IMG/VR virus record: IMGVR_UViG_3300049718_000055 | Span: 1 to 64,000 of that record | Source: a virus | Strand: one strand, 5' to 3' | Length of the DNA: 64,000 nt | Shown: in pieces, positions 34,801 to 57,660 of the stretch | Position numbering within the stretch: the first letter of the stretch is position 1 | How the letters are laid out: each line of letters opens with the position of its first letter | The notes under the pieces: model-generated | Told to the model about the DNA's origin: nothing | The model's database searches: none | Seen by the model: the letters and a program-made list of their open reading frames with translations, nothing else | Made by a program: the position numbers and the translations under genes

Positions 34801-37800
34801 TTTTTGGAATCTCTTCTGCTTTTACCTCTGGCTGCGGTTCTGGCTTCTTCTCCTCTTTAGGAGCCTCATAACGGTTTTGCAGAGCCGCTTCAAATTCCTC
34901 CTGCGTTACCGGCTCAAACTTCTTCCCCTGTGATTTTGCGATCTTCTCCAACTCTGGACGAAAAGCAACATTGAAATAGTCCGCGGCGGTGTGGAGTTCT
35001 TGCCCTTCTACTTTCGGAGCAAACAACATTTCCATCCCCGGCTCACCAACAATCATGTCATTCAAGGCGCCATTGAGACGTGTCGTTTTTGAATCAAGAA
35101 GAGCGACATAGACAGCTTGCGTAACGCGGCTCGGCTCGTCTGGTTTACCTAAGAAGAAATCTCCGTTCCCATAGACGTGATTCCATGCCGGTATCGGCTT
35201 GTCGCCTTCTCTCCTGAATCTTCGAGTCTTTGCCGCCGCCGAAACAGCCTCAGTAACTTTCTCTGTGAGACCTGGATAATAAGCTCTCAGTGCTGTTACC
35301 GATCCAATTGCCTTTGTCAGAGAGGATTCTGCATCAGTTCCGCTTATCAGCCGCACAGACTCTACATCTAGAATATGAGATCCGACAAGAGCGAGAACAA
35401 ACTTATCCTTCCCCGCCTTGTTGAGAGTGGCATCCTCCCCAACGCTATCGAACCATGCCGCATTTTCGGTAGGTGGAATATGGAAATACTCTCTAGCTTT
35501 TTTGGCAAACCAATACGGATCATCGTCAATCGCCGCTCTTACGGTCGAGATGTCGTTGCCAGCTATTTTACTGGCAATCTCACTTAGGATTCCATCCTTC
35601 CCATCCAAACGCTCTTGATGGTCGGCATCGGAAAGTAGTTTCCCGTTGCTTAACGCCTCTACGTTTTCTCCTACCTGGGCGGAACTGCGGTCGTTGAATA
35701 ATCTTCCAATTCTAGCCGCTTCACCCACGGTGTCTATCGGCTTATCCAAGACCCGTACAGGGATGTAGGTTCTTCCATCATCGGGAACGTGTTTAATACC
35801 TACCTTAGCGGAGAACTTTGCTACGGCATCATTGAAAACAATCATTTCCGCATCGCGGGCCTTCGTATCCCCCATCCGAGAAATGTTCTCAAGCCACTTC
35901 TTGAGCCGTAGAAGTCTTGTGTTCCCTCCAATTACACGGCCATACGAATCGAGAATCGCTGGACCATTCTCCGGCCCATATCCTGTATCAAAATAAAGCC
36001 GATGCGTGAAGTTTTCAGGCTGAGCTTCCCCTAAGACATCTTTCGTCCGATTCTCATCGAAATCTCTGTACTGCATTTCCTTTGGAACATACTCTTCGTT
36101 GTCCTCCAGATTGTTTCCATTCCACCTGTGAGAGACAATAGGAGCTTCAATGTCCATAAGAGCGTACTGCCCCGGGTGAGATTCCTTCCCTTTGTTGACC
36201 TGGGTAGGATCGCCACGACGGGCTATAAGAATTCCCCCTCCACTTGGATAATCGCCCTTACCTGCGGCTTTCCCTACCGCATCCGCGGTTTGCTGCACTG
36301 CACGATGAAGCGTGTCCGTTGCCTCTTTTACGGCTTGTGCCCTCTTGTCAATATCCTGTTCCGTAGTGCCGGCGTTGACATCAAACGCATCACCTATCGA
36401 CCGAACAACCTCAGCAACAGCGGCCTCCTGCCGACCCTCTGCCGCCTGAACGTACTCCTTTGCCTCTTCCGCGTTACGAGGTTCCGGCGCGGGACTTCCC
36501 GCCCTGTCATTGACCCCTTGAGTCGCTTGCCGATTGTTCTCAACCCACACGGATTTAGATGCGGCCTCCGCTAACTGCTCCGGCTTATTGAAAACGATGC
36601 TGTCTCCCTTGCCAACAATCCTGCGCACTACATCGCTTGGGTTTAAGGGATTGAGGTCGTGCTGTGCGCCTCCAGAGGAAAGATACAAGTCTCCGTTTTT
36701 CCTCTCGCTTACGGTCCAAGTGCGCCCCTTCCAGTTAGCGTCTTGAACTGTGTTCCCCGGCTGCAACTGAGCGATCCTCGCCAGAGGATCTTCGCTGCCA
36801 GAGAGTTTCTGACGAACCAATGCTTCGACCGGAACACCTTCCCTGTCGGCTACCTCTTGAAGTCTTCCGGCCGCATATTCAGGATTGCTTGCCCAACCAG
36901 CGTCTCCGACCTGGGTGAGAAGATTTATAAGTGACTGCTCGGTGTCTGGCGCCGGACCCTGCTCTCCCTCTTGCGGATTTGTGCGCTCTGCGCGGCTCTG
37001 CCGGCGCCGGTTCGAGTAATCCCTCACACGCGCCAGTTTCTCTTCAGGAATAGGCTCTGCCCCTGTCGCCAGCAACTCTTGGTCAATCGAAGCAACCGCC
37101 CGCTGTGCGTCCCTGTCCCGCTCTTCCCGAGACAACCTTTCTTCTCTTGTCATCTCCCCGTAGCGGATACGTCCATAAGCCGCTAAATTCATTGCCAGAT
37201 TAGAGTAAATTCCATCCTTCTTCAAAGGAATTTTTTGTCCATCTGGACCATGAAGAAGCCCGTCGGCCCCAAGTTCCCAAACATTGCCTCTGCGGTCAAC
37301 AATCCTGTCTCCAGACCGCGTGAGCATATTCAGGTTTTCGTTGGTCAGATCCCATGCAGACGCTTCAGCCTGGGAGAGAGTCGCATCTTTCTTCTCGTAG
37401 TCCACTCCAGACTTTTCAAAGGCTTCATCGAATTCGTGGTTGAATTGCTCTCTTCCATTTGCGAACGGACCTTCTACGCCCTCACCACGAGCAGCGTCAT
37501 GCTCGTCTGGTAGACGCTCATCACCGCCAATCCCGGTCATGTCTTGAGCGTGGCGAGAATCAATTTCCTTCGCAATCAACTGCTCTGTGACATTTCCTAG
37601 ATGATCTTCCTTTGCGGCATCTTCGGCTGTTGTGGTCCTGAGAGCTTGAATCTTGGCAAGCGTTCTCGCCGACTCCTCATCCTCAACACTCGCGGCCGTC
37701 TCTGCTGATCCGAAGTACCCTGTGGAATTTAGATACTGCTTCTCCCCTGTTTCCTCGTCTTGGACATAAACCCCAAACCCGCTGCCGACTGGCTCGACGC

Positions 37801-39682
37801 CGATATACGCTTTCTGCTCAAGACGGGTTACGGGGCCATAAACCTCTTCGCCATCAACAACCGTCTTCGGAATTACTTCCGTGGCTTGTGGGCGCGGAGT
37901 CTCTTTCTCACGCTCCTCTCTAGCCTTTACGTTCCGCTGCCTTGCGGCCTCGTTGTCGGAAATGATTTTCTCGCGCTTTACTGTCTCCGCCTTTTTGTTC
38001 TCCTCTACGGCTTTGCGGATTGACTCCTGAACCGCGCTCTCATGCTGCCTTGCAACAAGCTCTTCCCGGTCTGCATGGATTTTCCTTACAGCCCGTTCCG
38101 CCGCAATCGGATTCCAGGATTCTCTTAATGCTGTGCTGTGACGATATTGAATCCGTTTCAGGTTTCTTTCGTCTGCCTTCCCTATGAGATCATGCGCTCT
38201 CTGGAAATAAGGGTCATCGTTCCATACCTTGTCGAGTACAATCGACTGCTCTTGCGGAGTTTTTAATTGCCCAAATTTCTTCCCGTCAAATAGTTCCTTA
38301 GAGGCATCATCAAGATGGCTCGTGACTACCGCCTTGGCAGCATCTTCTTTAATTCCATGCGCCAGCATTGCAAGATTGCCAAGACCGGAAAGGCCAAATT
38401 CAAGCGTTTCTGAAATATCCCCCTTCTTTGCCGCTTCCATTGTCTGCTGATAGTCCTGCCCTACTCCAGCGGCCATCTGAATCTTGAAGCCATAATCAGC
38501 AAGAGTGGAGACGGTTCTGACTGTTCTCGCAACAGCAATAGGAGCTTCCCATCCCATTTGTTCTGGAAGGCTTGCGCCCCGTGAGGCCACGATAATAGCC
38601 ACCATTGCAGGATTGGTTAGAGTTTCCCCAAGCCGCATCGAGGCATTTGAAATTCCGGCATTACCTTTTGCTACTATTCCTTTCCACTTACTTGTCTCTC
38701 CAACCCTGTCGGCCCATGTATTGTTTTTTGCCCTGATAAGGTCTGTGTCCCCTCCTTCAATACCTACGGATTTTGATGCGAGAGAGACTAGGTTGGGATG
38801 CTCCGCGTGTGGCTCTGGAATGCCCAGCAGTCTAGCGGTATTCGCTATTCCTCCCTTGATTTCATCCCACCAATTTCCGCCGGCAACTTCGAGCCTCTTC
38901 GTTGCTCTGGCAAGATCGGTAAGTCCTGCGTATTCCTGCTTTCGCTCCTCATTCCACCCTTGCTCACTGGCATAGGCATACCCTTCAGCATAGTGCTTCG
39001 CATACTCCTCTGGGGTAGAAAATGAGTGATACGCTATCTCCGCCGGGTCCGCAATTGTACGAGAGGTGTCAAAGCGATGATTTTTAAGGTCTGATTCTTC
39101 TTTTGCCTTGTGATCTTGCGCCCTCTTCAATGCGCTCTGGTATACGCCTCCCTGCTCATCTGGCGTGAGGGTTTTCTTCTCTGCATCTTCCCACTGCAAA
39201 GACATAGCATATTCTTCACCCCTTGCGGGATTTAGATGATGCAGTTGCACACCATCCCTGTATCGGCTGACTCTTTCAATTGCCCTGTCTTTGCTTTGCC
39301 CTTCGTTTATAGTGCGGGCATAGATTCTCTGCTCGGGTGTCATCCACGAATCGTCATACGTTCCGCTCTGCATACTGCGGGCATTTTCCGATTCGACTGA
39401 CGAAGGCCCAATTGTCGCATGGTGAGGGCCGGCGCCTGTCGCTTGGAGAATCTTTTCCTGTGGGGTCTGAACAGCGGTTGCACCGTGCTTTTCAGCCAGT
39501 GCCGCGAAGTCTGTCTTTGGGGTCTTACTTACATTTTGAATAACAGGTTGGGCAGCTTGAGACTTCGACGAACCTCCAAATTGCTTGGCGAGACTCTGGT
39601 AATCGACGTTTGGGCCTTCCTTCTTTTGCCCAACTACGCCACCAAATTGTCCTGCGAGTTTTTCATAATCAGTCGGCATCAC
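28838..39682 (-). CDS. Giant polyvalent internal virion protein (DarB-like): ParB-like domain, zincin motif, Strawberry-notch-type SF2 helicase
   Basis: GPAIL...IGGNTR; TTVTHELWH; GTGTGKT, DEAG, SATPF, AGGIG, EQTLGRPWR. Confidence 0.8.
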   Translation of the reverse strand: MMPTDYEKLAGQFGGVVGQKKEGPNVDYQSLAKQFGGSSKSQAAQPVIQNVSKTPKTDFAALAEKHGATAVQTPQEKILQATGAGPHHATIGPSSVESENARSMQSGTYDDSWMTPEQRIYARTINEGQSKDRAIERVSRYRDGVQLHHLNPARGEEYAMSLQWEDAEKKTLTPDEQGGVYQSALKRAQDHKAKEESDLKNHRFDTSRTIADPAEIAYHSFSTPEEYAKHYAEGYAYASEQGWNEERKQEYAGLTDLARATKRLEVAGGNWWDEIKGGIANTARLLGIPEPHAEHPNLVSLASKSVGIEGGDTDLIRAKNNTWADRVGETSKWKGIVAKGNAGISNASMRLGETLTNPAMVAIIVASRGASLPEQMGWEAPIAVARTVRTVSTLADYGFKIQMAAGVGQDYQQTMEAAKKGDISETLEFGLSGLGNLAMLAHGIKEDAAKAVVTSHLDDASKELFDGKKFGQLKTPQEQSIVLDKVWNDDPYFQRAHDLIGKADERNLKRIQYRHSTALRESWNPIAAERAVRKIHADREELVARQHESAVQESIRKAVEENKKAETVKREKIISDNEAARQRNVKAREEREKETPRPQATEVIPKTVVDGEEVYGPVTRLEQKAYIGVEPVGSGFGVYVQDEETGEKQYLNSTGYFGSAETAASVEDEESARTLAKIQALRTTTAEDAAKEDHLGNVTEQLIAKEIDSRHAQDMTGIGGDERLPDEHDAARGEGVEGPFANGREQFNHEFDEAFEKSGVDYEKKDATLSQAEASAWDLTNENLNMLTRSGDRIVDRRGNVWELGADGLLHGPDGQKIPLKKDGIYSNLAMNLAAYGRIRYGEMTREERLSREERDRDAQRAVASIDQELLATGAEPIPEEKLARVRDYSNRRRQSRAERTNPQEGEQGPAPDTEQSLINLLTQVGDAGWASNPEYAAGRLQEVADREGVPVEALVRQKLSGSEDPLARIAQLQPGNTVQDANWKGRTWTVSERKNGDLYLSSGGAQHDLNPLNPSDVVRRIVGKGDSIVFNKPEQLAEAASKSVWVENNRQATQGVNDRAGSPAPEPRNAEEAKEYVQAAEGRQEAAVAEVVRSIGDAFDVNAGTTEQDIDKRAQAVKEATDTLHRAVQQTADAVGKAAGKGDYPSGGGILIARRGDPTQVNKGKESHPGQYALMDIEAPIVSHRWNGNNLEDNEEYVPKEMQYRDFDENRTKDVLGEAQPENFTHRLYFDTGYGPENGPAILDSYGRVIGGNTRLLRLKKWLENISRMGDTKARDAEMIVFNDAVAKFSAKVGIKHVPDDGRTYIPVRVLDKPIDTVGEAARIGRLFNDRSSAQVGENVEALSNGKLLSDADHQERLDGKDGILSEIASKIAGNDISTVRAAIDDDPYWFAKKAREYFHIPPTENAAWFDSVGEDATLNKAGKDKFVLALVGSHILDVESVRLISGTDAESSLTKAIGSVTALRAYYPGLTEKVTEAVSAAAKTRRFRREGDKPIPAWNHVYGNGDFFLGKPDEPSRVTQAVYVALLDSKTTRLNGALNDMIVGEPGMEMLFAPKVEGQELHTAADYFNVAFRPELEKIAKSQGKKFEPVTQEEFEAALQNRYEAPKEEKKPEPQPEVKAEEIPKIGIEPPAEPKAETEKGIKPPPKTRSEKEVAKDVLLNQVREQGYVDYEGLKTFVYADESTKENAKWHMKNFHLVSEAIWEFEKPEGVERKDALKWVLERKKILSSIERDKYFERGRGRTEWDEIGKTSRVYLHEKADKTTVTHELWHAFLPFLSDEDLRALNTITGPTKALWDGKSRADLVGKVLEEFSERAIGGIEKYNRDENPKLFSAETGKILAKLKEIFQQVYKKWREDPLRPFRVTDDAKETLDRIYHVTGMDPADEFLTETEAAEKAKKRIKNPSDVVDPIEQARKDTGAIFVRRDVKGVIEARTHEGAKDVKNIPGKTVVFAFDDYAKAVMAFTPIGRETRYGSSGIQADAAQLIEMDDGNWGVKFNTKGNVPPTVMFQESQPETRGEMGARRNQLKRELSALPRHKILDKQFLQMQIDDLENKIAAEYGTEERAPKTDPELAHKVMEERKNERANRVREGTHEAAGIQRPPTVDRVSGKTELGMPRHDGAGGSPAIRGFGVDRVEPIRMLPLRETNDPVVGKTADDAPETEESWKKRTGKAGMSTESPLPIWAITERTARILDEDKHPGQAPTVQIVMSALQRGDGALVASGTGTGKTWTAMGIISEFGRDREAGDKPLTLYITRNRPLLEKTADEPAKAFGVDLSLDTPKFGIENGTYGVSYQTALRNPVYQNIKWDMVIADEAGEARNWFKKAENKKGMSQGQMLMAIMQNAKKGVYMSATPFHTPLEVGYLEKLGLWKKGGYEEFLKSNFKTYYKDKTLVAELDPVKMAKLRQQLIQRGQMVSQTLSYEGFNVHFGFVPMTSAMKRGLDTISGLMERARTRTKLTEGLSPKSISAYEAQFTKAFLEREMIPNVIEMAKRDIEKGYSIIIASPTTDEDLFRKERSGEPTAFQQMDDAMNGQFSRLLPRLPNVFDALQAEFGDKIGNYSGVNQSDTGREKVRKDFQDGKLPMAYLSIPAGGIGSDWNDTKGDKPRLMYVLGPPYSGVLLEQTLGRPWRDGTKSDVHVVFLGTDAAPQVRIMKELVAPRMRSIRAAVHGIKDSLATAMENYSDVERTRAEQDTLNFANGNEIEVKAADFGVRHAGRVVGIDSWDAIQIPPASEAMNKGLRTGAQEGADWTNMYQDKERAFTPPPTNVKAEKAINDIAESAAKNPDIPKETIALGAAHASEVAGITPEGIDPAEAGSYAMKGELQSHGFTYDPETGEWSGPLYHAKKMLGRDTSGLEERRLGESEEPTFGQRIKEKIRIPAINAARKIGMQDKVRRWFDKEYANYQKRTLGMNFRMRALGVSRKSGYLEKTGAVFDKLDDYQQKQMGISGNFQMRLIDIFKENKLEWNSDGPVEGKVKEWLRRPGHDDVREVWDVKEGRVASNDPRINKAAEELRLLMDEANELATKEGVHREDGSIYDVPNNPHYMPHETDWDMELTDSETGEIRTLSEVCDDKTLDDVAKLRYLEKERQRLKVGTGDAHRWLGELSRDRERRLKRPRNPNVTTKRTVNHPFYKKDIWALNKYFDQLGSAVALESTLGHDMGKVGSLIADVPSSALRKDLTENLKLYFEYQDWNTRVGRMYRFMQPFEVITKMSLSPISVAFHNVHAGQLGLKPWFVGNYRMFRHPKERMREKFYVGVVTPRMNPALIEGKNFGVAKEMLKATGFSDVYNWQRATVGEIAWAWMDLDVLSDLKAGGKRAETSRRLLKDRMLLSDDEINKAVANNRWDEESKWKAERVFANKVAFTEQPEQMPRMAKLSMSEGLGDAEKNLHAVAHAAYNLQSFQIKSYSGIKEWYFDEVFHHRNFRPLLPFFLLYPAAGFALMNLKAGVKHGAQKAFEGATGQSHTRDSWDNLLEDYRDLEKHPWSGALKICLDSLFIGMANDRMKMWTDIGMMAAEGEEKKLYKMMGYMATDELDRLVGSIYKDIFMAGSTVPKAADDTSKLKNPTVKKFGKNLEKESAKEAKRIAWPLGTIPKVNEWSGTKKIQPPPK

Positions 39683-47055: not shown

Positions 47056-47133
47056 TGGTACTCCCGGTTGGACTCGAACCAACATCAATCCACTTACGGA
47101 CACTCGCTTCGGAGGCGAGACCGATACGGGAGC
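47056..47133 (-). tRNA. tRNA-Arg(CCG), no canonical D-arm
   Basis: CTCGC-CTCCGAA-GCGAG; normal T-arm and acceptor stem. Confidence 0.8.
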
Positions 47134-47138
47134 ATAAC

Positions 47139-47215
47139 TGGGGCCGCTGGCCGGAATCGAACCGGCGTCATCCAACTACTCTTGCCGGTTTAGGAAACCG
47201 GAGAGATACAGCGGC
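47139..47215 (-). tRNA. tRNA-Arg(CCT), no canonical D-arm
   Basis: CCGGT-TTCCTAA-ACCGG. Confidence 0.8.
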
Positions 47216-47219
47216 AAAC

Positions 47220-47296
47220 TGGCGCTCCCGGCAGGAGTCGAACCCGCGTCATCCGTCTACGGCCTCCTGTTTAGAAGACAGTGCCGATACGGGAGC
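47220..47296 (-). tRNA. tRNA-Arg(TCT), no canonical D-arm
   Basis: CTGT-CTTCTAA-ACAG. Confidence 0.8.
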
Positions 47297-47298
47297 AT

Positions 47299-47468: not shown

Positions 47469-47562
47469 TGGTAGGGGATGAAGGTGTCGAACCTTCCCGT
47501 TGCGCTAATCTGGCGCTCTCCAGAGTTTATAAGACTCCGCCGCACGGCCGATGCTATCCCCC
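47469..47562 (-). tRNA. tRNA with TAT anticodon (Ile), long variable arm
   Basis: GGAGT-CTTATAA-ACTCT; 94 nt. Confidence 0.8.
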
Positions 47563-47780: not shown

Positions 47781-47852
47781 CTAAAACACGACTCCCCAAA
47801 TGACCCGCTTCCCGGTCATTCTGGTTATCACGTGTTTGGTCCTGATCTGCAT
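47781..47852 (-). CDS. Leader peptide 3, MQIRTKHVITRMTGKRVIWGVVF
   Basis: Lies between promoter and terminator; codons match the 12 downstream tRNAs. Confidence 0.8.
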   Translation of the reverse strand: MQIRTKHVITRMTGKRVIWGVVF

Positions 47853-47872
47853 GAATTCCCACCTGCAAGTAC

Positions 47873-47901
47873 AGCGTACATCAACTTTCCGTTTTGTGCA
47901 A
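47873..47901 (-). promoter_or_regulatory. Promoter of tRNA block 3
   Basis: TTGCAC-17bp-TACGCT. Confidence 0.65.
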
Positions 47902-47905
47902 CTGC

Positions 47906-49090
47906 TCAGTCCTTGTAAGGATCAAATTCACGGGCAGATGCCATAGCCACTCCGACCGGGGTCAACACGTGAAGAACTTTGATCGAATCTCCACACGCCG
48001 CAAGAACTCCGTCTAGCCGTTTGTAGCAGTCTGGAGATTCGTCTAACCCGGCGCCACGCAGTTCAATTCCGGCCTTCCTTACCCATCCATCCATCATCTC
48101 CTGAGTTACTCTTCCAGGGCGCTTGCACTCGCCTGTCTTGCGGTCGAAAGTCCCCTTCGCCTCCATGCGACCCATTGCACGGCCAGCGCCGTGAACGGTT
48201 GAGTAAAGGCTGTACTTGGCATCCTCGTTCTCCATGCCCTCCAAGATGACGGACTTCTCGCCCATCGTTCCTCCAACGAATCCCTTCTGTCCAGGGAACG
48301 CCGGAGTGGCTCCCTTGCGAACAACCCACAGCATCTCACCACCATGCTCTTCCCGCCATGCGAAGTTGTGATGGTTGTGAACCTCTTCAATAGCCTTAGC
48401 TCCAAGAATCTTAATCACGCGGTCGCAGACCCAGTTCCTTCCTGCATAAGCGTACTCGCCGGCAAGAGACATAGCCTGTAGATATTCGCTGCCTAGTGCG
48501 CTGTCTACCGACAAGACACATGGCTCCACATCCATTCCGTCTTTTGCTCCTGCTGCTTTCAAAAACCACGTTGCAATCTTATGCCCGAGGCCGCGAGAAC
48601 CGAAATGAACACCCACCCAAACGCGGTCTTCTTCGTCTGTAAAAAGATCTACATAATGGTTTCCAGAACCCAAAGTCCCAAGTTGCTGATGAGCCATTTC
48701 CTTGAGCGGGGAGGTCATTGAAAGACTCCAGGCATCATGCTCGAAAACCTGATCGTCTACACGCTCGTCGTCATTCTTTCTCCCAACCCCAAAACTGACT
48801 ATATTCCATACGTCATCCATTATCGGCTTGATGCTGCCACGCAACATCCAGCCTTCCATGTCGGTCAACACGGCCTTGTTTCCACAGCCGATGTCGTATC
48901 CCACTCCGGTTGGGCTGATGGAATTTCTATAAGCCACAACACCGCCAATGGGCACACCGTACCCAAGGTGGTTATCTGGCATCAATGCCACTTTGTCCGC
49001 GGTTTTCGCACAGGTCCGAATCTGGTTGAGAGTCTTTTCTTCAGCTTCCCCAAATACCGGTATAGTTCCATCTACTAACTGCATCCCCAT
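47906..49090 (-). CDS. rtcB: RNA 3'-phosphate/5'-OH ligase RtcB
   Basis: MPDNHLGYGVPIGG; VGYDIGCG; GTLGSGNHY; HFGSRG; HNHHN; RKGAT; HGAGR; DESP..YK. Confidence 0.96.
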   Translation of the reverse strand: MGMQLVDGTIPVFGEAEEKTLNQIRTCAKTADKVALMPDNHLGYGVPIGGVVAYRNSISPTGVGYDIGCGNKAVLTDMEGWMLRGSIKPIMDDVWNIVSFGVGRKNDDERVDDQVFEHDAWSLSMTSPLKEMAHQQLGTLGSGNHYVDLFTDEEDRVWVGVHFGSRGLGHKIATWFLKAAGAKDGMDVEPCVLSVDSALGSEYLQAMSLAGEYAYAGRNWVCDRVIKILGAKAIEEVHNHHNFAWREEHGGEMLWVVRKGATPAFPGQKGFVGGTMGEKSVILEGMENEDAKYSLYSTVHGAGRAMGRMEAKGTFDRKTGECKRPGRVTQEMMDGWVRKAGIELRGAGLDESPDCYKRLDGVLAACGDSIKVLHVLTPVGVAMASAREFDPYKD

Positions 49091-49105
49091 ACCCTCCTTT
49101 TTATT

Positions 49106-49180
49106 TGGTGAGCGCGGAGGGAATCGAACCCCCATCGTTGCGTTCGTAGCGCAGCACTCTATCCGTTGAGCTACGCGCCC
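49106..49180 (-). tRNA. tRNA-Arg(ACG)
   Basis: TGCG-CTACGAA-CGCA. Confidence 0.93.
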
Positions 49181-49191
49181 ACATTCAAACT

Positions 49192-49265
49192 TGGTCTCCG
49201 AGGGCGGACTCGAACCGCCGACACCGCGCCCCGAACGCGGGATGTTTCCACTACACTACTCAGAG
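49192..49265 (-). tRNA. tRNA-Pro(CGG)
   Basis: CCGCG-TTCGGGG-CGCGG. Confidence 0.92.
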
Positions 49266-49266
49266 A

Positions 49267-49340
49267 TGGTCAGCGAGGGGAGAATTGAACTCCCACCACA
49301 AGTTCCCAAGACTTGGATGCAACCATTACACCACTCACTG
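49267..49340 (-). tRNA. tRNA-Pro(TGG)
   Basis: CAAGT-CTTGGGA-ACTTG. Confidence 0.9.
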
Positions 49341-49348
49341 ATTAAAAG

Positions 49349-49517
49349 TTATGCGTGACGGAATCAAACCGTCTCCACCCGCTCCAATGCGGGAGTGCTA
49401 TCCGTCCAGAGTCGTGTCGATCTTGAGCCGCTACGTATCGCCCCAAAACGCATTCCACTGTACTGCCTTCGCTACGCTCCGTCGAGCTTCACTTTGGCTT
49501 CATTACACCAACGCATA
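49349..49517 (-). ncRNA. tRNA-like RNA with a ~95-nt insertion in the D-loop
   Basis: TATGCGT/ACGCATA acceptor stem, GTGT/GCAC D-stem, CCCGC-ATTGGA-GCGGG, T-arm GACGG-TTTGATT-CCGTC; no CCA. Confidence 0.65.
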
Positions 49518-49519
49518 CT

Positions 49520-49595
49520 TGGTGCCGACTACCCGTATCGAGCGGGTTTCCATCGCTCTTCAGGCGATTGCTATGACCTCATCAGCTAAGTCGGC
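49520..49595 (-). tRNA. tRNA-Phe(GAA)
   Basis: ATCGC-CTGAAGA-GCGAT. Confidence 0.9.
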
Positions 49596-49600
49596 AAAAC

Positions 49601-49676
49601 TGGTGGACCTAGAGGGGCTTGAGTCCTCGACCTCCCCGGTGCAAACGGGGTGCTACTCCATCTGAGCTATAGGCCC
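49601..49676 (-). tRNA. tRNA-Ala(TGC)
   Basis: CCCCG-TTTGCAC-CGGGG; G3:U70 present. Confidence 0.92.
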
Positions 49677-49684
49677 GTAAAACT

Positions 49685-49760
49685 TGGAGGGAAAGGTGGG
49701 AGTTGGACCCACTAGAACCTGTTCCACAGACAGGCGCCGCACCGTTTGGCTTCAGTCCCC
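49685..49760 (-). tRNA. tRNA-His(GTG), weak acceptor stem
   Basis: CCTGT-CTGTGGA-ACAGG. Confidence 0.78.
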
Positions 49761-49770
49761 ATAAAGCTGT

Positions 49771-49842
49771 TGGGGCCGGATGTGGGAATCTAACCCACCG
49801 CGCAGGCCGTACAAAGGGCTGCTGCTACTCAGAGCATCCGGC
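49771..49842 (-). tRNA. tRNA-Thr(TGT), atypical D-arm
   Basis: Loop TTTGTAC; perfect acceptor and T stems. Confidence 0.72.
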
Positions 49843-50391
49843 TCAGTTAAACGCATACCTCTTATCACCTTCGGAGTCCGTGAATAAAAACGGACCCCAC
49901 TCATTTACCTCGGCGCCGAGAGACCTCAACAAAAATCGCGGCGTGTGAATCGACTGCGGCAGCGGCCGGCGAAGCAACTTCATTCCAGCTTCCTCCGGCG
50001 TCCGGTCGGCCTTGCGGTGATTATCTTTGGCGCAACATGAAACCAAGTTGCTCCACGATGGCGATCCTCCTCTTGACTTTGGAATTATGTGGTCAAGAGT
50101 TAGTTCGCTAGTCTTGAACCTTTCTCCGCAATACATACACCTTTCTCCGTCACGAAGAAAAATGTTCTTGCGGCTTACAACTTGAAGCCTAATTGGGACG
50201 TGGCGATAAGCGCGAAGCCTGATTACCGATGGAGCATAGATTCCAAGTCCGCGATGGATAAGTACATCGGTAGGAACCTCAACCAGAGCAACACCTTTCG
50301 TAATAAGAGTCAGAGCCTTCTTAACTGAAACTATGCGAAGCGGCTCATACGATGCATTGAGAAGAAGTGTTGCGCTTTTTCCTATTGTCAT
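49843..50391 (-). CDS. HNH endonuclease
   Basis: LLLNASYEPL; SRKNIFLRDGERCMYCG; TLDHIIPKSRGG..SWSNLV.CC...N..K..RTPEEAGM. Confidence 0.93.
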   Translation of the reverse strand: MTIGKSATLLLNASYEPLRIVSVKKALTLITKGVALVEVPTDVLIHRGLGIYAPSVIRLRAYRHVPIRLQVVSRKNIFLRDGERCMYCGERFKTSELTLDHIIPKSRGGSPSWSNLVSCCAKDNHRKADRTPEEAGMKLLRRPLPQSIHTPRFLLRSLGAEVNEWGPFLFTDSEGDKRYAFN

Positions 50392-51163
50392 AGTCACCAC
50401 GCTCCCAACGTTCTTTCAGTAAAGCAGACATCTTCGCCTTAGTTTCTTCCTTGTGCTTCATACCTTTGTTTCCAGGTACTCTGCCTTTCCTGATTGCCGA
50501 CTGTTTAGCCCGTGTTTCTTCGGAAGCCTTTTTACCTGTCAGAGAGCGAGAAATCTTTGCTTTACTCTCTTCTGAAAGTTTCCTTCGTCTGTTCGCCGCA
50601 GAAATCTTCTCACTAAATCCCTGCGGTTTAGGTCTCCCCTTCAAAGCAGCAGATCGTTTTGCTTTTTCTTCCTCCGACATTGGGCCTAATTTCCGGCCCC
50701 TAAATGATGCCGACATACGCGCTTTGGTTTCTTCCGAACGCTTTGAACCAGTCCTAGATTTAATCATCTTGGCTATCGCCTCTGCTGTGTGTCTCAATCC
50801 CTTATGCACAGCAGATACTTTCGCTTTCATTTCGGCTGTTCTAACCGCTCCTGATCCTCCCTCGCCCCCATCTGTTCTATTTCTCAAGCATCCAGTTCCA
50901 AGGTTAATTCTCCCATGGAATTTTATTAGCTGCTTCTCCATGAAAAACGCTTCGTCCTCTGACAAATCTTTGGCAATAATTACAATCATCGATTTATCTT
51001 TTGGAGTACGTATCGCTTCAATAGGATTTTTCTTATAGGCTCTTAACCCGTGTCCTTTCCCTATGTAATAAGGAGAACCCGCTGGGCCGTGTTCGGAGGC
51101 AAAAGTCCTCACGTATTGGTATACGTAAAACCCAGAGATTACAGGTCTCCTATAGTTACTCAC
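50345..51163 (-). CDS. GIY-YIG endonuclease with NUMOD3 repeats
   Basis: FYVYQY...YYIGKG...R; LRNRTDGGEG; repeated SEETKAKMS. Start refined to GTG 51163. Confidence 0.88.
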   Translation of the reverse strand: MSNYRRPVISGFYVYQYVRTFASEHGPAGSPYYIGKGHGLRAYKKNPIEAIRTPKDKSMIVIIAKDLSEDEAFFMEKQLIKFHGRINLGTGCLRNRTDGGEGGSGAVRTAEMKAKVSAVHKGLRHTAEAIAKMIKSRTGSKRSEETKARMSASFRGRKLGPMSEEEKAKRSAALKGRPKPQGFSEKISAANRRRKLSEESKAKISRSLTGKKASEETRAKQSAIRKGRVPGNKGMKHKEETKAKMSALLKERWERGDYDNRKKRNTSSQCIV

Positions 51164-51187
51164 TGTCTTACTCTCTTTCCTTAAAAG

Positions 51188-51262
51188 TGGAGCCGGGTAG
51201 CGAAATCGAATCGCTGTCTGTGGGATACGAATCCACTGCTCTGCCATCTGAGCTAACCCGAC
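51188..51262 (-). tRNA. tRNA-Thr(CGT)
   Basis: GTGGA-TTCGTAT-CCCAC. Confidence 0.88.
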
Positions 51263-51345
51263 TATGTTTTTCTGCTAACCTCTTCCACACTTCTCGGAGA
51301 TCGGCATTCAAATGAAACCTGTGCGGCATGTCAACCTCCAAAATT

Positions 51346-51419
51346 TGGAGCGGTTTGCCGGATTTGAACCGGCGCTTTCGCCCTGGCAAGGCAACGTCTT
51401 ACCACTCGACTAAAACCGC
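51346..51419 (-). tRNA. tRNA-Gly(GCC)
   Basis: TTGCC-TTGCCAG-GGCGA. Confidence 0.9.
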
Positions 51420-51424
51420 TTCAC

Positions 51425-51498
51425 TGGCTCCGAGAGTAGGAGTCGAACCTACACAGCGAGCTTCAAAGACTCGCGGCCTACCGTTAACCGATCTCGGA
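51425..51498 (-). tRNA. tRNA-Gln(TTG)
   Basis: CGAGT-CTTTGAA-GCTCG. Confidence 0.92.
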
Positions 51499-51505
51499 TC
51501 AAACT

Positions 51506-51581
51506 TGGCTGGGAAGGCAAGTCTCGAACTTGCTACCTTCCGGGTCAGAGCCGGACGTTCTACCCGTTGAACTTCTTCCCA
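51506..51581 (-). tRNA. tRNA-Gln(CTG)
   Basis: TCCGG-CTCTGAC-CCGGA. Confidence 0.92.
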
Positions 51582-51590
51582 ACTTCAAAC

Positions 51591-51665
51591 TGGCTGTGCA
51601 GGTGGGAGTCGGACCCACATCCTCTCGCTTAACAGGCGAACGCTCGACCATTGAGCTACCGCACA
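51591..51665 (-). tRNA. tRNA-Asn(GTT)
   Basis: TCGC-CTGTTAA-GCGA. Confidence 0.9.
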
Positions 51666-51667
51666 TC

Positions 51668-51706
51668 AAAAAGCCCCTAACCGCTTATTCTCGGCTAGGG
51701 GCTTTT
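51668..51706 (-). terminator. Attenuator terminator 2
   Basis: AAAAGCCCCTAGCCG...CGGTTAGGGGCTTTTT. Confidence 0.85.
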
Positions 51707-51749
51707 CCTCATTTGCTACGTTGTAGCAGTTGAATCTTTGCGCCCAAGC

Positions 51750-51812
51750 CTACACGGGATTACCGAACGCTTGTGGCGTTGTCGGCTGTCCGGTATGGGC
51801 TCGGTTCATCAT
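51750..51812 (-). CDS. Leader peptide 2, MMNRAHTGQPTTPQAFGNPV
   Basis: Starts 7 nt after the -10 box; codons match the 12 downstream tRNAs. Confidence 0.8.
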   Translation of the reverse strand: MMNRAHTGQPTTPQAFGNPV

Positions 51813-51819
51813 GTTTCCT

Positions 51820-51848
51820 ACTTTACCGCCGTTCGCAATTTCTGTCAA
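51820..51848 (-). promoter_or_regulatory. Promoter of tRNA block 2
   Basis: TTGACA-17bp-TAAAGT. Confidence 0.8.
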
Positions 51849-51857
51849 ATCATTTTC

Positions 51858-51934
51858 TGGTAGGGTTGGTGGAACTCGAATCCACTAGGACATGATTGAA
51901 GGTCATGGTGCTCGTCCGCTTTGCATTCAACCCC
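51858..51934 (-). tRNA. tRNA-Glu(TTC)
   Basis: CATGA-CCTTCAA-TCATG. Confidence 0.8.
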
Positions 51935-51939
51935 ATAAC

Positions 51940-52016
51940 TGGCGCGGTAGACGGAAATCGAATCCGTGTACACGATCTTGAGAGAATCGCTGGAGAACCA
52001 GCACCCCTGCTACCGC
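51940..52016 (-). tRNA. tRNA-Glu(CTC)
   Basis: CGATT-CTCTCAA-GATCG. Confidence 0.8.
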
Positions 52017-52017
52017 A

Positions 52018-52092
52018 TGGCGGTCCCACGGGGAGTTGAACCCCGAACGCCTCTTAGACAGAGAGGAATCATTGCCGTTAGACCATGGGACC
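52018..52092 (-). tRNA. tRNA-Asp(GTC)
   Basis: CCTCT-CTGTCTA-AGAGG. Confidence 0.9.
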
Positions 52093-52221: not shown

Positions 52222-52296
52222 TGGTTGCGTGGGGAGGACTCGAACCTCCGGTCTCCAGCTTATGAGGCTGGCGAGATGCCGCTTCTCTACCTCGCC
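52222..52296 (-). tRNA. tRNA-Met(CAT), initiator-like
   Basis: CCAGC-CTCATAA-GCTGG; 1:72 mismatch; GCAACCA end. Confidence 0.88.
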
Positions 52297-53482: not shown

Positions 53483-56400
53483 TCATGGCTCCACAAACAA
53501 TACTTTCTCGTAGCCTCTCCCTTGGCACTGGACCTTGTACCACAAATTAGAATCAGGCCAAAGAATAAAGTCCTCCGTACTTGTTCCGACCATTCTCAGT
53601 GTACGGAACGAGATTGCCGGTAGTCGGGTCCGCAATGGATTGCGAAAGCCGCCAGCTTGCGGCATTACAAATGTGAATCCAGCCGTTGGATTATCGTCGT
53701 AGAACACGTTGACAATGATCGGCGCACCCGCTGAGTAAATCCAGAAAACGTCGCGCGCAAATTTGGAAGATGCCTCCGAAATATTGATCTTGTAAGTGTC
53801 GAACGTCTTCCTCGTCCTCGGCAGTACCAGAGCCTCTACAGCGGCTTGGTACAGGTACGCGAACGTGGACAGATTCCCGACGATCTGGAGACTGATTTTG
53901 TAGGCTTGCTGGCCGAGTCCGTTGAGCAACGGCAGGTTGATCTTGCCGCGAGTCGAGTTGCTGATCGTTCCGAGTGGGACCGTGATTGCGCCGTCATTAA
54001 ACAAGGCGTTGACGGTCAAGGTCTGCCCCCCGAGGTTGCAGTCAACCACAATCGCGTTGTACTGTTTCTGGTTTGCCGGCGAGCTTTGGAATGAGTAAGC
54101 AGTCTGGAGATTGATTGCAATCGGCCCCGCGGCCAGTACGCCCCCGCTTGATACTTGATCGTAGGGAAGGTTTTGCCGGTCAATGTGTACGAGCCCGTTT
54201 GAATCGCCGTAGAGCAACTGATTCGTATCGGCCTCAAGCATCAAGCATTGCGCGTCAACGTCATCATTCCTGAATCGCTTGTACTGAGCGTGGTATACCA
54301 ACCGATGCCGGTTTCCGTCCGTACCGATGTAACTGAAAAATACCATTGAGTTCCAGTACGAAGCCACCGTCTGCGACAACTTCGTTTGGTCCGCTTCGAC
54401 AATCGGAGTGGAACCTACGCCCTGGAAAAGGAACTCAACCTGGAGACTCATGTACACCGACTCCCCACCAGTAAAAGCACGTAGACCATCTGCGGCTTGG
54501 TAGGCAATCATCTCTTCGGTCGCCACGTACCCAAATGGCGCCACACAACCATGCGCACAAGACGTGGGATATGGTGCCTGTTTTGCCGGACTGTCCGGTG
54601 GAACCATCCACCATCCGCTTTTGATACAACTGACCATGATATTTCCCTTGAAAGGCACCACGGCCGTAATGTAATCATCCGGCGTAGAGATGATGATGTT
54701 GTTCGCTTCACCCACGTACTGCGGAGCGTTTCCGGTGCTGAAGTAAAGCGTTGACGGGTTGTTCGGATCTCCCCAATACCATGCCTTGTTGAAAGCTATG
54801 ACCATGCCGTAGACCGGCTGGCCTACCTTAATACTCGCCTGGACCTGCTCTCCAGCCGCATGATAATTCTGGACAAAGGCAGTGAAAGAACTCACTCCGA
54901 CTGTCAATACCACTACGGTTTCAAAGTTGTTTGCTTGAGCCGTTGGATTCCCCAACAAGACTTGCTGGCGCACTGAGATGTTCGCCATGCTTGCCGGGTT
55001 TATCGTCACTACAGAGCCCACCGGAATATCTGGCAGCGTGTAATAGATCGTGACCACTAGATTGTTGACATAGACGGTTGCCGCTGATGATCCTAAGTTG
55101 TCTCCGCCTACAAGCGTCTGAGTAAAATCAGCATTGACGATTGCAGGAGTAATCGTAGTGCCCCACAAATTTCCACTTCCACCAAAGACATAAGTCTGCG
55201 GAGCTAGTGTCAAGGAAATCTCTGCCGGAAGGGCGGCTCCGGGAATATTTATACTTGCGGTCATCTTAGGACCGAGCACGCTCGTATAAGCATCAAAGCT
55301 GACTTTAATTCCGGTGATGGTCGCGGTTAAGGGGATGCTCGGAAGACTGAAGTCTCCCTGCAAGGCCCCAATCCCTTGCGAAGCAGGTGCCGACACGGAC
55401 GTATAAAGTGATGAAGATGTAGCGTTGGTTGGATTTACCCAAGTAGACCCGACCGGATTCGATCCTGTGATTGACGGAGAAACCTGTAATGTTCCTACAA
55501 TAGCAGCGTTCAGTGTAGTATTCACCGGAACCGGAAGAAGACTCGGAACCGGAACATCGTTCGTAAACGAAACCATATCCGCTCCGGCTATCAGGTAGTC
55601 CGGTGCCGTGTCGGTATACTGGACTATCCCCCCGCCCTCTATGCTGATCGGGATTTCGTCTATTCGCCTGAAGTTATCTCCGTAGGTTCCCCCTCTTCTA
55701 TAGATTCTCAGATACCCGATCTGACCATCCTGCAACTGTCCTGCGGGTCCGTAAGTCTTAGTGTTGATTTTTAACAACACCGGCTGGCGCCGCGGGTAGA
55801 CCCAGTTCGTATGGTTAGGCGGGTTCTGATTCGTCATTATCGGAGATGGATTCGATTCCGTTCCATCCACGTCATTTAAGAACGTCGCAACATAGTCATA
55901 GGCTACTCCACCAAGAGTATCTGGACCTGCCCCTCCAAACAGTACCAGAGAAGAAAGTTTAATCGTCGAGCTTGAGTTGTCATTCATCACAATCGTGATC
56001 TGATAGCCGTTGACGTTTGACCAGTTGTAGACCGCATCTTTATAGTCCGCCATCCCTGCTCCAGAAAAATCTGACAACTGGAAGAGAAGCGGCGTCCAGA
56101 TATTTTTCCCTGTATCCAGTTCTCCGATAGACCCGGCTCCATTTCCGTAAAGGCTGAGACTATCCTCAAGAACAGCTTCCGTTAGAAGAGTAGTTACGCT
56201 ACTTGTCCCAGAGGCAGAAGATGTTGCTAAAGTAGTCAACTCCTGCAAAGGTCCTTGGGAAATTACTTTATAGAAATAGTCGCTCTCGAATGATCCGTCT
56301 CCGCAATCAAAACTTAGCGTTATGCTCTGGATTTGCGTTTGGTCGCTGACAAACATATAGAGACCAATGTAATCAGATTGGTTGTCGGATACAGTCTCGC

Positions 56401-57319
56401 TAGAGGGGATAGGATATGGACCTATCGGAAGCCCACTAAACGGCGCTGTGATCGTTGCGGTTGTGGACGCCGGCACGATAACCGAAAGAGAGAGGCTTGA
56501 TATTGACGCCCCAACAGAGTGAGTCTTTGTAAAATCTGCAACAAACCCGGTTGGCGTCACCAAGAGGACTAAAACTGTTTCCTGATTTGATCCTGTATCG
56601 ATGGTCAAATGCTGAAACAAATAGATTGCATTATTGTCTGCGACTGCCGTGGAAACTGGGTACGTCACCTCCTGAATCCCAATTGCCTTCACCGCAGAGG
56701 AAAGATTCGTGTTTACATAGGTTTCGATTGAATCGCTGCTTGTTGCTGAAAACGTGTATGGCGTCGTGTCGCTCACATAGTCGTCAAGTACGACAAGCGT
56801 CGTTGGAGATTGAGACTGAGCGGTGACCGGGAACTGTGGAGGAAAAATTCCTCCCTGCTGGGGAGCAGAGAATGTTCCGTCGTCCTTCCAAAAACCGTTT
56901 GAATCCGAGAAAAACGCACTCACGGTGCTCGTAAAATCAGTATTAGAGAACGATTGAATCGAACATGGGTTTCCGCTGAATGACGTGGATATTTTTGTGA
57001 ATGCGCCCGGAGTAAGCGCCCCCCGGCGCCATAGAGACCCGTCTGCCGTCACGCAGTATCTTGCGTATGCTCCGGCGAGTTGCCCGAGCTTGAAGAGACT
57101 GACACATTTTCCTGATAGCGGGTAGACCTCCCCACCCAACACGCCAGTGCTGTTTACGATTACGCTGCCCAATTTTTGGGCATAGGCTCCTTCCGCCAAC
57201 TCTTCGACGTTGCACTCGTTTAGCAGACCTTGGGGGTCCACGAGGTCATCTACCTGACGGGCAAAGATTCCCTTGCTTTTGAACAGCAAAACACTCTCGG
57301 CATAGTGCGGATCGGGCAT
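53483..57319 (-). CDS. Tail nozzle/stabilisation-like structural protein
   Basis: 1278 aa, beta-rich; NNPSTLYFS...ITAV...HGCVAP propeller-like motifs. Confidence 0.6.
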   Translation of the reverse strand: MPDPHYAESVLLFKSKGIFARQVDDLVDPQGLLNECNVEELAEGAYAQKLGSVIVNSTGVLGGEVYPLSGKCVSLFKLGQLAGAYARYCVTADGSLWRRGALTPGAFTKISTSFSGNPCSIQSFSNTDFTSTVSAFFSDSNGFWKDDGTFSAPQQGGIFPPQFPVTAQSQSPTTLVVLDDYVSDTTPYTFSATSSDSIETYVNTNLSSAVKAIGIQEVTYPVSTAVADNNAIYLFQHLTIDTGSNQETVLVLLVTPTGFVADFTKTHSVGASISSLSLSVIVPASTTATITAPFSGLPIGPYPIPSSETVSDNQSDYIGLYMFVSDQTQIQSITLSFDCGDGSFESDYFYKVISQGPLQELTTLATSSASGTSSVTTLLTEAVLEDSLSLYGNGAGSIGELDTGKNIWTPLLFQLSDFSGAGMADYKDAVYNWSNVNGYQITIVMNDNSSSTIKLSSLVLFGGAGPDTLGGVAYDYVATFLNDVDGTESNPSPIMTNQNPPNHTNWVYPRRQPVLLKINTKTYGPAGQLQDGQIGYLRIYRRGGTYGDNFRRIDEIPISIEGGGIVQYTDTAPDYLIAGADMVSFTNDVPVPSLLPVPVNTTLNAAIVGTLQVSPSITGSNPVGSTWVNPTNATSSSLYTSVSAPASQGIGALQGDFSLPSIPLTATITGIKVSFDAYTSVLGPKMTASINIPGAALPAEISLTLAPQTYVFGGSGNLWGTTITPAIVNADFTQTLVGGDNLGSSAATVYVNNLVVTIYYTLPDIPVGSVVTINPASMANISVRQQVLLGNPTAQANNFETVVVLTVGVSSFTAFVQNYHAAGEQVQASIKVGQPVYGMVIAFNKAWYWGDPNNPSTLYFSTGNAPQYVGEANNIIISTPDDYITAVVPFKGNIMVSCIKSGWWMVPPDSPAKQAPYPTSCAHGCVAPFGYVATEEMIAYQAADGLRAFTGGESVYMSLQVEFLFQGVGSTPIVEADQTKLSQTVASYWNSMVFFSYIGTDGNRHRLVYHAQYKRFRNDDVDAQCLMLEADTNQLLYGDSNGLVHIDRQNLPYDQVSSGGVLAAGPIAINLQTAYSFQSSPANQKQYNAIVVDCNLGGQTLTVNALFNDGAITVPLGTISNSTRGKINLPLLNGLGQQAYKISLQIVGNLSTFAYLYQAAVEALVLPRTRKTFDTYKINISEASSKFARDVFWIYSAGAPIIVNVFYDDNPTAGFTFVMPQAGGFRNPLRTRLPAISFRTLRMVGTSTEDFILWPDSNLWYKVQCQGRGYEKVLFVEP

Positions 57320-57660
57320 GACCACAGAATACCGCTGTCTAAGCTGTAGATGCCACTATTTTCCCCACATAAACCGAAACCCGTTCAAAACGCCCAGAAC
57401 AAACAGCAGACTAACTGCCATCAAAAAGTATTCCTGCCATTCGAATTTTAGGTTTCTCTTTGCGTTCCTGTGTCGCATCACGCCTCCTGCCGAACCAGCG
57501 GCCTTCTGGACGCTTCCCGCATCCGCCTGATGATCTCGTTCAAACATTCCTCTTCCCGGCGCTTCGCGTAGTTGTTTCCCTCGTCCAAAGCCGCAGACTC
57601 CAACGATTCCGTCCACTCGTTGAATAAATCATTGTTGCTGATCTTCTGAAGGTTCACGTC

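Follow-up and report, generated by a model that had tools for sequence, protein, structure and literature searches.

Phage-encoded tRNAs have been discussed for fifty years by function, as codon compensation or as a means of escape from tRNA-targeting immunity, and to our knowledge hardly anything has been said about how their genes are controlled. This question is raised by the first 64,000 nucleotides (nt; the window) of IMG/VR virus record IMGVR_UViG_3300049718_000055, in which a tRNA array divided into three blocks includes rtcB, a gene for an RNA ligase. The window is part of an 88.6-kb record of peat origin (CheckV completeness 91%), and the nearest isolate is Tunturi_5, a 309-kb phage of Tunturiibacter (Acidobacteriota), with 68.5% nucleotide identity in rtcB. 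The array extends from about 52930 to 46729 on the minus strand, as do all attenuator and array features, which are given here in window numbering. It holds at least 35 tRNA genes, including those missed by ARAGORN, which at default settings reports 24. Three cassettes stand in series, one per block, with leaders at 53058-52993, 51812-51750 and 47852-47781. The initial annotation had proposed that the second of these, attenuator 2, gates 12 tRNAs together with rtcB and with HNH and GIY-YIG endonuclease genes. Our analysis makes it probable that block 2, comprising the 12 tRNAs, the endonuclease genes and rtcB, is gated by a ribosome-mediated attenuator of the trp/his/ilv type; we place greater confidence in the narrower prediction of a leader-peptide attenuator before the block-2 tRNAs, a case made strong by the comparative evidence from relatives.

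A promoter, a short reading frame and a terminator precede block 2

The second cassette begins with a putative sigma-70-type promoter, P2 (51820-51848, TTGACA-17 nt-TAAAGT, 10/12 matches in a promoter scan), whose -10 box ends 7 nt 5' of the ATG of a short open reading frame (ORF). This is the geometry of a leaderless mRNA, and AGGA between the -10 box and the ATG would suit internal initiation on read-through transcripts. The leader ORF (51750-51812) has a credible start, comprises 20 codons and a TAG stop, reads MMNRAHTGQPTTPQAFGNPV-stop and is enriched in codons of block 2. An intrinsic terminator (regions 3:4, 51668-51707), recognised both by folding and in a terminator scan, lies between the leader and the block-2 genes, with a stem of 16 base pairs (bp) and about -25 kcal/mol followed by UUUUUGAUGU. 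It is separated by 3-4 nt from tRNA-Asn (51665), into which its U-tract runs. This leaves no room for a second promoter between terminator and tRNA-Asn, so that the block-2 tRNAs would be reached only by read-through from the promoter directly upstream of the leader. A search of the region against Rfam gave no match to a T-box or another cis-regulatory family. The terminator of cassette 1 lies at 52967-52939 and that of cassette 3 at 47756-47733, with the same build as cassette 2.

Leader codons match the tRNAs of the block behind them

Seventeen of the 19 post-start codons of leader 2 encode the nine amino acids served by block-2 tRNAs, a count on which we agree with the initial annotation, and all of CAG/CAA, ACA/ACG and CCG/CCA are present. 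The same nine amino acids make up 49% of residues in the long ORFs of the window, and with this background (0.49) the binomial P is 2.6e-4; among segments of equal length drawn from those ORFs, 12 of 10,463 reached 17. Under conservative wobble rules, 13 of the 19 codons are read directly by block-2 tRNAs. When each of the three leaders was compared with each of the three blocks, the resulting matrix was diagonal: leader 1 matched its own block at 13 of 20 codons (6 and 7 for the other blocks), leader 2 at 17 of 19 (1 and 10) and leader 3 at 20 of 22 (1 and 11). No variants are listed inside leader 2 in the DNA runs X2, X4 and X7. Taken alone, the codon match in the window is suggestive and not decisive.

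Related phages conserve the cassettes and sort synonymous codons by block

Loci of relatives were fetched with RtcB and with the HNH protein, plus Tunturi_5, yielding ten further syntenic arrays (L001/L163, which is Tunturi_5, L003, L004, L007, L015, L083, L084, L085, L086 and L088; L087 is the same contig as L003, and L176 the same as L084). Nearly every block start in these arrays carries a cassette of promoter, mini-ORF and terminator, and all three cassettes are present in Tunturi_5 (L163 5157-5255, L001 4456-4569 and L001 16807-16956), a cultured phage whose host is Tunturiibacter psychrotolerans X4BP1. The geometry TTGACA-17-(-10)-6/7 nt-ATG recurs before leaders in L003, L007, L015, L083-L086, L088 and L176. 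The -10 box stands 6-7 nt from the ATG in most cassettes, a spacing that points to leaderless transcripts on which the first ribosome would be tightly coupled to the polymerase. Compensatory changes affect at least seven pairs of the terminator stem among six relatives (RNAalifold).

Block-2 leaders were located at 4552-4647 in L003, 3420-3518 in L004, 4456-4569 in L001, 5073-5162 in L007, 9164-9229 in L083, 9401-9481 in L085, 9151-9237 in L086, 9334-9414 in L088 and 4430-4504 in L176, each with a high content of T, R, F, H, N, A, P, Q and G. The pattern TRF.NANPTA..TPQG recurs in several, and the window's leader has the same composition in permuted order; that composition was kept while residue order changed argues for selection on codon content and not on a peptide. 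Asp/Glu tRNAs lie in block 3 of L001 and L004, where D and E codons are frequent in the block-3 leaders; the window, L003, L083 and L085 have no Asp/Glu codon in their block-3 leaders. An exception is L088, where three such codons (E once, D twice) stand towards the 3' end of the block-3 leader and no Asp/Glu tRNA is shown in that block. Among block-1 leaders, Trp is confined to those of L007 and L015, the arrays with tRNA-Trp in block 1.

Synonymous codons were compared between the block-2 and block-3 leaders of six loci for Thr, Gly and Arg, whose isoacceptors differ between the two blocks. The ratio of Thr ACA/ACG to ACC/ACT was 22:6 in block-2 leaders and 1:21 in block-3 leaders (Fisher 8.5e-8), that of Arg CGH to AGR/CGG was 9:2 and 3:12 (4e-3), and that of Gly GGY to GGR was 7:8 and 1:11 (0.04), although these P values overstate the number of events, the homologous leaders being related and non-independent sequences, which counts against the case. 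The window's genes use the compared codons about evenly, and the block-2 leader of L176, outside the six-locus count, has Thr at 3:3. Given 55-80% protein identity between these phages, synonymous sites would not remain sorted by isoacceptor without selection.

When all tRNA runs of the roughly 160 fetched loci were scanned without bias, the top leader matches all fell in this clade (best P among antisense controls, 3e-3), and no codon-matched leaders were found in that scan at the unrelated, rtcB-anchored phage arrays L026, L062, L081, L089 and L111. The codon-matched leader is not a universal element of tRNA arrays. A pattern search of viral contigs with the conserved region-2 motif returned only contigs already found and chance matches. 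In L176 (4430-5040), an endonuclease-VII-like ORF is inserted behind the attenuator-2 hairpin and ahead of tRNA-Asn; the leader is kept, and the hairpin has lost its U-tract.

These comparisons bear on the simplest alternative, a plain partial terminator or insulator between tRNA sub-operons, with an ORF that is untranslated or encodes a micropeptide and a codon likeness due to chance. For the window by itself P lies at about 3e-4 to 1e-3, a moderate match, and against shuffled sequence the antiterminator described below is not significant, as such an element would allow. However, a promoter stands upstream of the terminator with nothing between terminator and tRNA, a match to the cassette's own block is seen in all three cassettes here and in about 25 of relatives, the choice among synonymous codons goes with the isoacceptors, and residues are permuted in order with their composition kept. 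We consider a plain terminator very improbable.

Predicted folds provide a terminator and a competing antiterminator

In free RNA, a long hairpin is predicted to pair leader codons 3-5 with GGCUUGG at the stop, followed by a small hairpin and then the terminator; the full leader-terminator fold has a minimum free energy (MFE) of -72.2 kcal/mol (z = -7.5). The long hairpin joins region 1 (51798-51804, CCGAGCC) to region 2 (51742-51750), which begins in the TAG stop and supplies the 5' strand of the putative antiterminator, GGCUUGGGC. RNAalifold also predicts the 1:2 helix from the six relatives, with most pairs lacking changes on both sides and several rows broken. As with classical attenuators, the thermodynamics of the complete RNA cannot show the switch, and full-length MFE folds with the ribosome footprint masked always retained the terminator. 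We therefore used truncated folds, in which the RNA ends before the 3' arm of the terminator and the ribosome footprint is masked. With the ribosome masked at codons 2-17, GGCUUGG(GC), from the TAG onwards, pairs with GC.CCC.UAGCC of the terminator 5' arm, and with the ribosome at codons 19 to stop this pairing is lost. The helix encloses the small hairpin (51708-51734), whose position is kept and whose sequence varies among relatives.

Truncated folds of 11 attenuators gave antiterminator pairing for upstream stalls in all of them, and in most, the window's included, the pairing was lost or cut when the ribosome neared the stop. The antiterminator strand and the terminator arm also co-change among relatives: the strand pair is of the type GGCUUGG / CC(A/U)AGCC in the window and L085, GGGUCUC / GAGGCCC in L003, L083 and L088, GGGGUCUC / GAGACCCC in L004 and GUCUCAG / CUGAGAC in L086. 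As a rough indication, duplex energies between region 2 and terminator arms averaged -14.4 kcal/mol for own pairs and -11.0 kcal/mol for cross pairs, in a matrix whose fixed windows around the stop missed region 2 at some loci. The pairing of region 2 with the terminator that had been proposed from the letters alone thus forms in masked folds, and its strands co-change, but it is weak when compared with shuffled sequence.

It is here that the attenuator meets its objections. Arm pairing was equalled in 107 of 300 shuffles, so that the antiterminator of the window alone is not beyond chance; stability was equalled in 11 of 300. Across 21 cassettes the shuffle control gave mixed results for antiterminator pairing and was more often significant for the stability of the region. 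Six of the 19 leader-2 codons, among them ACC, GGA and GTG, which are served by block-3 tRNAs, are unread by block-2 tRNAs under conservative wobble, and the Asp, Glu and Met tRNAs of block 1 in the window are unrepresented in leader 1. The block-1 leaders of L007 and L015 end 21-27 nt before the first tRNA without a terminator, and these cassettes must work differently or not at all. Finally, leader translation, termination and read-through are all predicted from sequence alone. The two terminatorless leaders (L007 3339-3475 and L015 6893-7000) are rich in S, L, Y, C and W.

Decoding speed as the predicted signal

From the anatomy of the cassette, its codon match and its conservation with co-variation in relatives, we infer a mechanism that involves leader translation, conditional read-through, a trigger acting on decoding and co-transcription of rtcB. 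Transcription would start at or beside the leader AUG, with the first ribosome following RNA polymerase closely. Fast decoding of the leader's Asn, Arg, Ala, His, Thr, Gly, Gln, Pro and Phe codons would bring the ribosome to the TAG, where it would cover region 2; the 16-bp terminator would form, and transcription would stop at the first bases of tRNA-Asn. At a slow codon, whose tRNA is scarce, uncharged or damaged, the ribosome would stall upstream and region 2 would pair with the 5' arm of the terminator. Polymerase would then transcribe the 12 tRNA genes, both endonuclease genes and rtcB before running into the attenuator at 47852. The cassette would act as a homeostatic OR-gate, in which a shortage of any block-2 tRNA raises output from the entire block, RtcB ligase being part of that output in this phage.

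Such a gate may answer attack on tRNAs or slow decoding in general, and tRNA cleavage is one possible trigger among several. We suggest only tentatively, as a rather doubtful proposal, that the three serial attenuators form an inducible counter-defence which senses, for each codon family separately, the loss of tRNAs to host anticodon nucleases and releases the matching phage tRNAs only after such loss, with RtcB resealing of cleaved tRNAs supplied from attenuator 2; if so, replacement and repair would be triggered by the damage itself. We give appreciable, though minority, weight to the idea that the attenuator reports overall translation capacity or amino-acid supply and not anticodon-nuclease attack, so that starvation, slow growth in peat or late-infection load would bring about a general adjustment of supply to demand. 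The leader is not built around one target but includes each of nine amino acids one to three times, and the three cassettes together cover nearly all codon families, as expected of a supply gauge. A tRNA array and rtcB in Anabaena are, moreover, induced by general translational stress (PMC8421152). Sequence cannot distinguish among the reasons why decoding might slow. Amino-acid starvation is not relieved by extra tRNA, and a signal at the level of tRNA fits better. The product of rtcB also speaks against a pure supply gauge, since RtcB seals 2',3'-cyclic-phosphate/5'-OH breaks, the type left by anticodon nucleases.

The path from attenuator 2 to rtcB

All 12 block-2 tRNAs named in the initial annotation were confirmed. 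ARAGORN at default settings detected Asn(GTT) (51591-51665), Gln(CTG) (51506-51581), Gln(TTG) (51425-51498), Gly(GCC) (51346-51419), Thr(CGT) (51188-51262), Phe(GAA) (49520-49595), Pro(TGG) (49267-49340), Pro(CGG) (49192-49265) and Arg(ACG) (49106-49180). The other three required a lowered ARAGORN threshold or Rfam, namely Thr(TGT) (49771-49842, lowered threshold), His(GTG) (about 49685-49759, both) and Ala(TGC) (49604-49676, Rfam).

Behind these tRNAs, rtcB (47906-49084) encodes a full-length protein of 392 amino acids (Pfam RtcB, PF01139, 2e-69, 235 bits, covering 4-424 of 426; PHROG 1075), in which an alignment to P. horikoshii RtcB (4dwr) finds the catalytic motifs GYDIxCG, GSGNH, GSRGLGH and HGAGR intact. 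With GGAGG 8 nt before its ATG and the ATG 21 nt after tRNA-Arg, rtcB can hardly have a promoter of its own. An independent promoter had been named beforehand as the finding that would undo the proposal, and a scan of the minus strand from 51660 to the rtcB start at 49084 found no sigma-70-like (TTGAC-type) promoter. The claim that no terminator intervenes also held: between attenuator 2 and rtcB the terminator scan gave nothing credible, its sole hit being a 5-bp stem inside the homing-endonuclease ORF, and a looser hairpin scan added only weak hairpins inside tRNAs or ORFs. Co-transcription of rtcB from attenuator 2 is therefore likely in this phage, as far as scans of the DNA can tell. In the peat metatranscriptome X15, of which contigs only were used, exact contigs cover parts of blocks 1 and 3 and nothing exact falls on the stretch from attenuator 2 to rtcB, where gaps prove nothing and DNA may be present in the library.

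Other observations weigh against gating of rtcB. Among the 11 arrays, window included, rtcB lies among or directly behind array tRNAs in six and has tRNAs on either side in L001, L004, L007 and L015, but there is no rtcB within the fetched DNA of L083, L084, L085, L086 and L088. The closest relative, L003, has a Ro-like gene and two terminator-like hairpins (8485-8512 and 9962-9981) before rtcB. Inclusion of rtcB in the gated unit is, by this comparison, not a conserved property. Within block 2 itself, a promoter-like site read from the sequence (51306-51334, TTGACA-17-TTGAAT), which is outside the promoter-scan hits, could serve as a weak internal promoter, and phage-specific promoters are not recognisable by sigma-70-type scans.

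Such points would suit an attenuator that gates the nearest tRNAs while expression of rtcB, and perhaps of the HNH gene, is largely separate, through an internal or phage-specific promoter or through precursor processing or differential stability. The placement of rtcB varies, L003 has TTGACT-16-TAAAAT in the same Gly-to-Thr(CGT) spacer as the promoter-like site, and RtcBs 70-74% identical to this one occur in phage contigs without tRNAs within 10 kb (L005, L006, L008 and L078). Yet the site at 51334-51306 has no A at -11 and is not positionally conserved in relatives, no other sigma-70-like site precedes rtcB on the minus strand, and both the 21-nt gap behind tRNA-Arg and the tRNAs on either side of rtcB in four relatives speak for a shared transcript. 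Separate expression of rtcB is thus unlikely, in our estimate; were it to occur, replacement and repair under one sensor, as the initial annotation put it, would not hold. Of that idea the attenuator and the gated architecture stand, as does the uninterrupted path to rtcB that co-induction calls for, and among the points left in doubt is the rtcB link, which is not conserved in every relative and could be bypassed from an internal promoter.

Returning to a read-through transcript from attenuator 2, we found no terminator after rtcB before the next leader, so that it would meet attenuator 3. In the window the promoter of attenuator 3 (47852-47905) is degenerate: it reads TTGCAC-17-TACGCT, and behind it stands an insertion of 20 nt with a GGTGGG ribosome site. 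Its counterpart in L003 (11170-11216) reads TTGACA-18-TACTAT-6-ATG. Transcripts that continue from block 2 and rtcB may therefore account for part of block-3 expression in the window. In relatives, a Ro/TROVE-like ORF either adjoins rtcB or replaces it ahead of attenuator 3 (L003 8100-9981, L085 12014-13522, L015 11819-13099), and in L003 and L085 tRNA-like pieces resembling Y-RNA modules lie just upstream of it. A TROVE search of the 88.6-kb virus record gave no match.

Endonuclease genes and other elements in and around block 2

The HNH gene (49843-50391, 182 amino acids) matches Pfam HNH_5 (1.3e-15, residues 85-139) and PHROG 16726 (7e-30; HNH, PF14279 / PF01844). A tblastn map shows it at one position, with Thr(CGT) on one side and Thr(TGT) on the other, in ten arrays including the window (46-64% identity), a positional conservation that is unusual for a homing endonuclease. 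In L007 an HNH gene stands after rtcB instead. The neighbouring 272-amino-acid ORF (50345-51163, GTG start) has NUMOD3 repeats (Pfam 2e-17) and matches PHROG 314, 'homing endonuclease' (3.5e-22). Its best GIY-YIG match in Pfam is not significant (E = 0.21), the GIY-YIG-like motifs GFYVY and YYIGKG at its N terminus being recognised by eye only, and in the tblastn map the NUMOD3 endonuclease is absent from all relatives. Presence in this phage only makes the GIY-YIG-like gene look like a mobile insertion and not a designed member of the unit. The two endonuclease genes proposed as gated do, therefore, lie within the unit by architecture, but the second is sporadic and without a significant GIY-YIG domain.

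Between the Phe and Pro(TGG) tRNAs lies a tRNA-like element of 179 nt (49341-49519) that both ARAGORN and Rfam miss. A 7-bp acceptor stem can be recognised in it, as can a T arm and an anticodon-like arm with UGG, but the place of the D arm is taken by about 95 nt, and the fold does not reach significance (z = -1.3). One possibility is a tRNA-Pro, disrupted or carrying an insertion, whose maturation would require processing; a search for Y-RNA gave Rfam YrlA only below threshold, over neighbouring tRNAs (27 bits against a threshold of 69).

A further ORF (51168-51330) with a Shine-Dalgarno-like sequence starts in the Gly-to-Thr(CGT) spacer. Here and in its counterparts (L003 5303-5458, L083 9791-9979, L084 9810-9986, L086 9823-9996 and L088 9838-9996), this ORF of 51-62 codons spans the entire tRNA-Thr(CGT) and ends immediately ahead of the endonuclease gene that follows. 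The N-terminal pattern M.H[RK]M[IM]L..ADF..V.K.VVARRK is kept in four relatives and looser in the window, and the ORF might couple HNH translation to unprocessed precursor RNA.

In the other blocks, the end of block 1 (51862-52092 and 52222-52296) carries Met, Asp and Glu tRNAs, including a probable tRNA-Glu(TTC) at about 51862-51935 that was read by eye and missed by ARAGORN and Rfam. Beyond rtcB (47060-47297 / 47469-47562) lie three tandem Arg tRNAs (TCT, CCT and CCG), which in Rfam gave only weak tRNA-Sec or tmRNA matches, and a 94-nt tRNA-Ile(TAT) whose variable arm is long; all four are odd in structure. An ORF of 1280 amino acids just upstream of the array (53483-57325) has no Pfam match, and one of 3614 amino acids occupies 28838-39682; both are on the minus strand.

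Comparison with known systems

Among enterobacterial leader-peptide attenuators are thr (Thr/Ile), ilvGMEDA (Ile/Leu/Val), trpL, hisL, leuL and pheL. With the thr/ilvGMEDA type, the predicted phage element shares a promoter, a short leader rich in regulatory codons and an intrinsic terminator, and it would also share mutually exclusive 1:2, 2:3 and 3:4 helices and a region 2 masked by a ribosome at the stop codon. It differs in that its targets are tRNAs and an RNA ligase and not biosynthetic enzymes, in sampling nine amino acids one to three times where those leaders have runs of one or a few, in the leaderless geometry of its mRNA and in having three cassettes in series. In the pheM-pheST attenuator and in T-boxes, as is known, the supply of charged tRNA likewise sets a component of translation by conditional termination, but the genes controlled are synthetases, and T-boxes bind uncharged tRNA directly, without a ribosome.

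Closer in mRNA geometry are the mycobacterial polycysteine ORFs, reported to act as Cys-responsive attenuators (10.1101/834739), where the codons of a short leaderless ORF at the 5' end of a polycistronic transcript set the expression of a downstream operon; those ORFs concern one amino acid, cysteine-metabolism genes and a cellular genome. Work on T5 tRNAs as counter-defence against tRNA-targeting immunity (PMC10264068) and on a phage tRNA that neutralises PARIS (PMC11464382) is related in that the present phage set could replace host tRNAs removed by nucleases; both papers, by their abstracts, concern the function of phage tRNAs, whereas what is predicted for the present phage is their regulation. 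The NUMOD3 gene among the tRNAs, found in this phage only, resembles T4 SegB-type free-standing homing endonucleases of tRNA regions, listed among the references of PMC8421152, whereas the neighbouring HNH gene is positionally conserved in ten arrays.

The paper on the Tunturi phages reports 43 tRNAs and a ligase, and no regulation (PMC11924767). Our literature search, with subscription journals mostly outside its reach, found no attenuator, leader peptide or sensing element described before tRNA genes or phage arrays. An attenuator in this place, if confirmed, would let decoding speed feed back directly on the supply of tRNAs, and one attenuator per block would explain why large arrays are split into blocks. 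The cultured pair of Tunturi_5 and Tunturiibacter psychrotolerans makes attenuation directly testable, and the cassettes could serve as compact, codon-specific reporters of tRNA availability.

The sole published parallel that we found for co-induction of tRNAs with RtcB is the supernumerary tRNA array of Anabaena sp. PCC 7120, which is silent and is induced when translation is impaired, together with rtcB (PMC8421152); rtcB is enriched next to such long arrays, according to the same study, and in Anabaena it is a separate locus. Control there acts at initiation, through direct repeats over the -10 box and start site that are bound by the repressor TrcR (PMC8421152, PMC10272220), and the text of PMC8421152 does not contain the words attenuator, leader or terminator. 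The published 9-nt tandem-repeat motif has no match in the window even with one mismatch allowed, and TrcR-type control was set aside, as was an rsr-Y RNA-rtcB module of the Salmonella/Deinococcus type, for which the 88.6-kb record offers no Ro/TROVE match. The Anabaena array and the phage array are thus alike in the co-regulation of supernumerary tRNAs with rtcB and differ in its means, a repressor in the one and a putative attenuator in the other, which could reflect convergence on the same logic. What the phage cassettes would bring to this comparison is a classical attenuation mechanism with a new class of target, tRNA genes.

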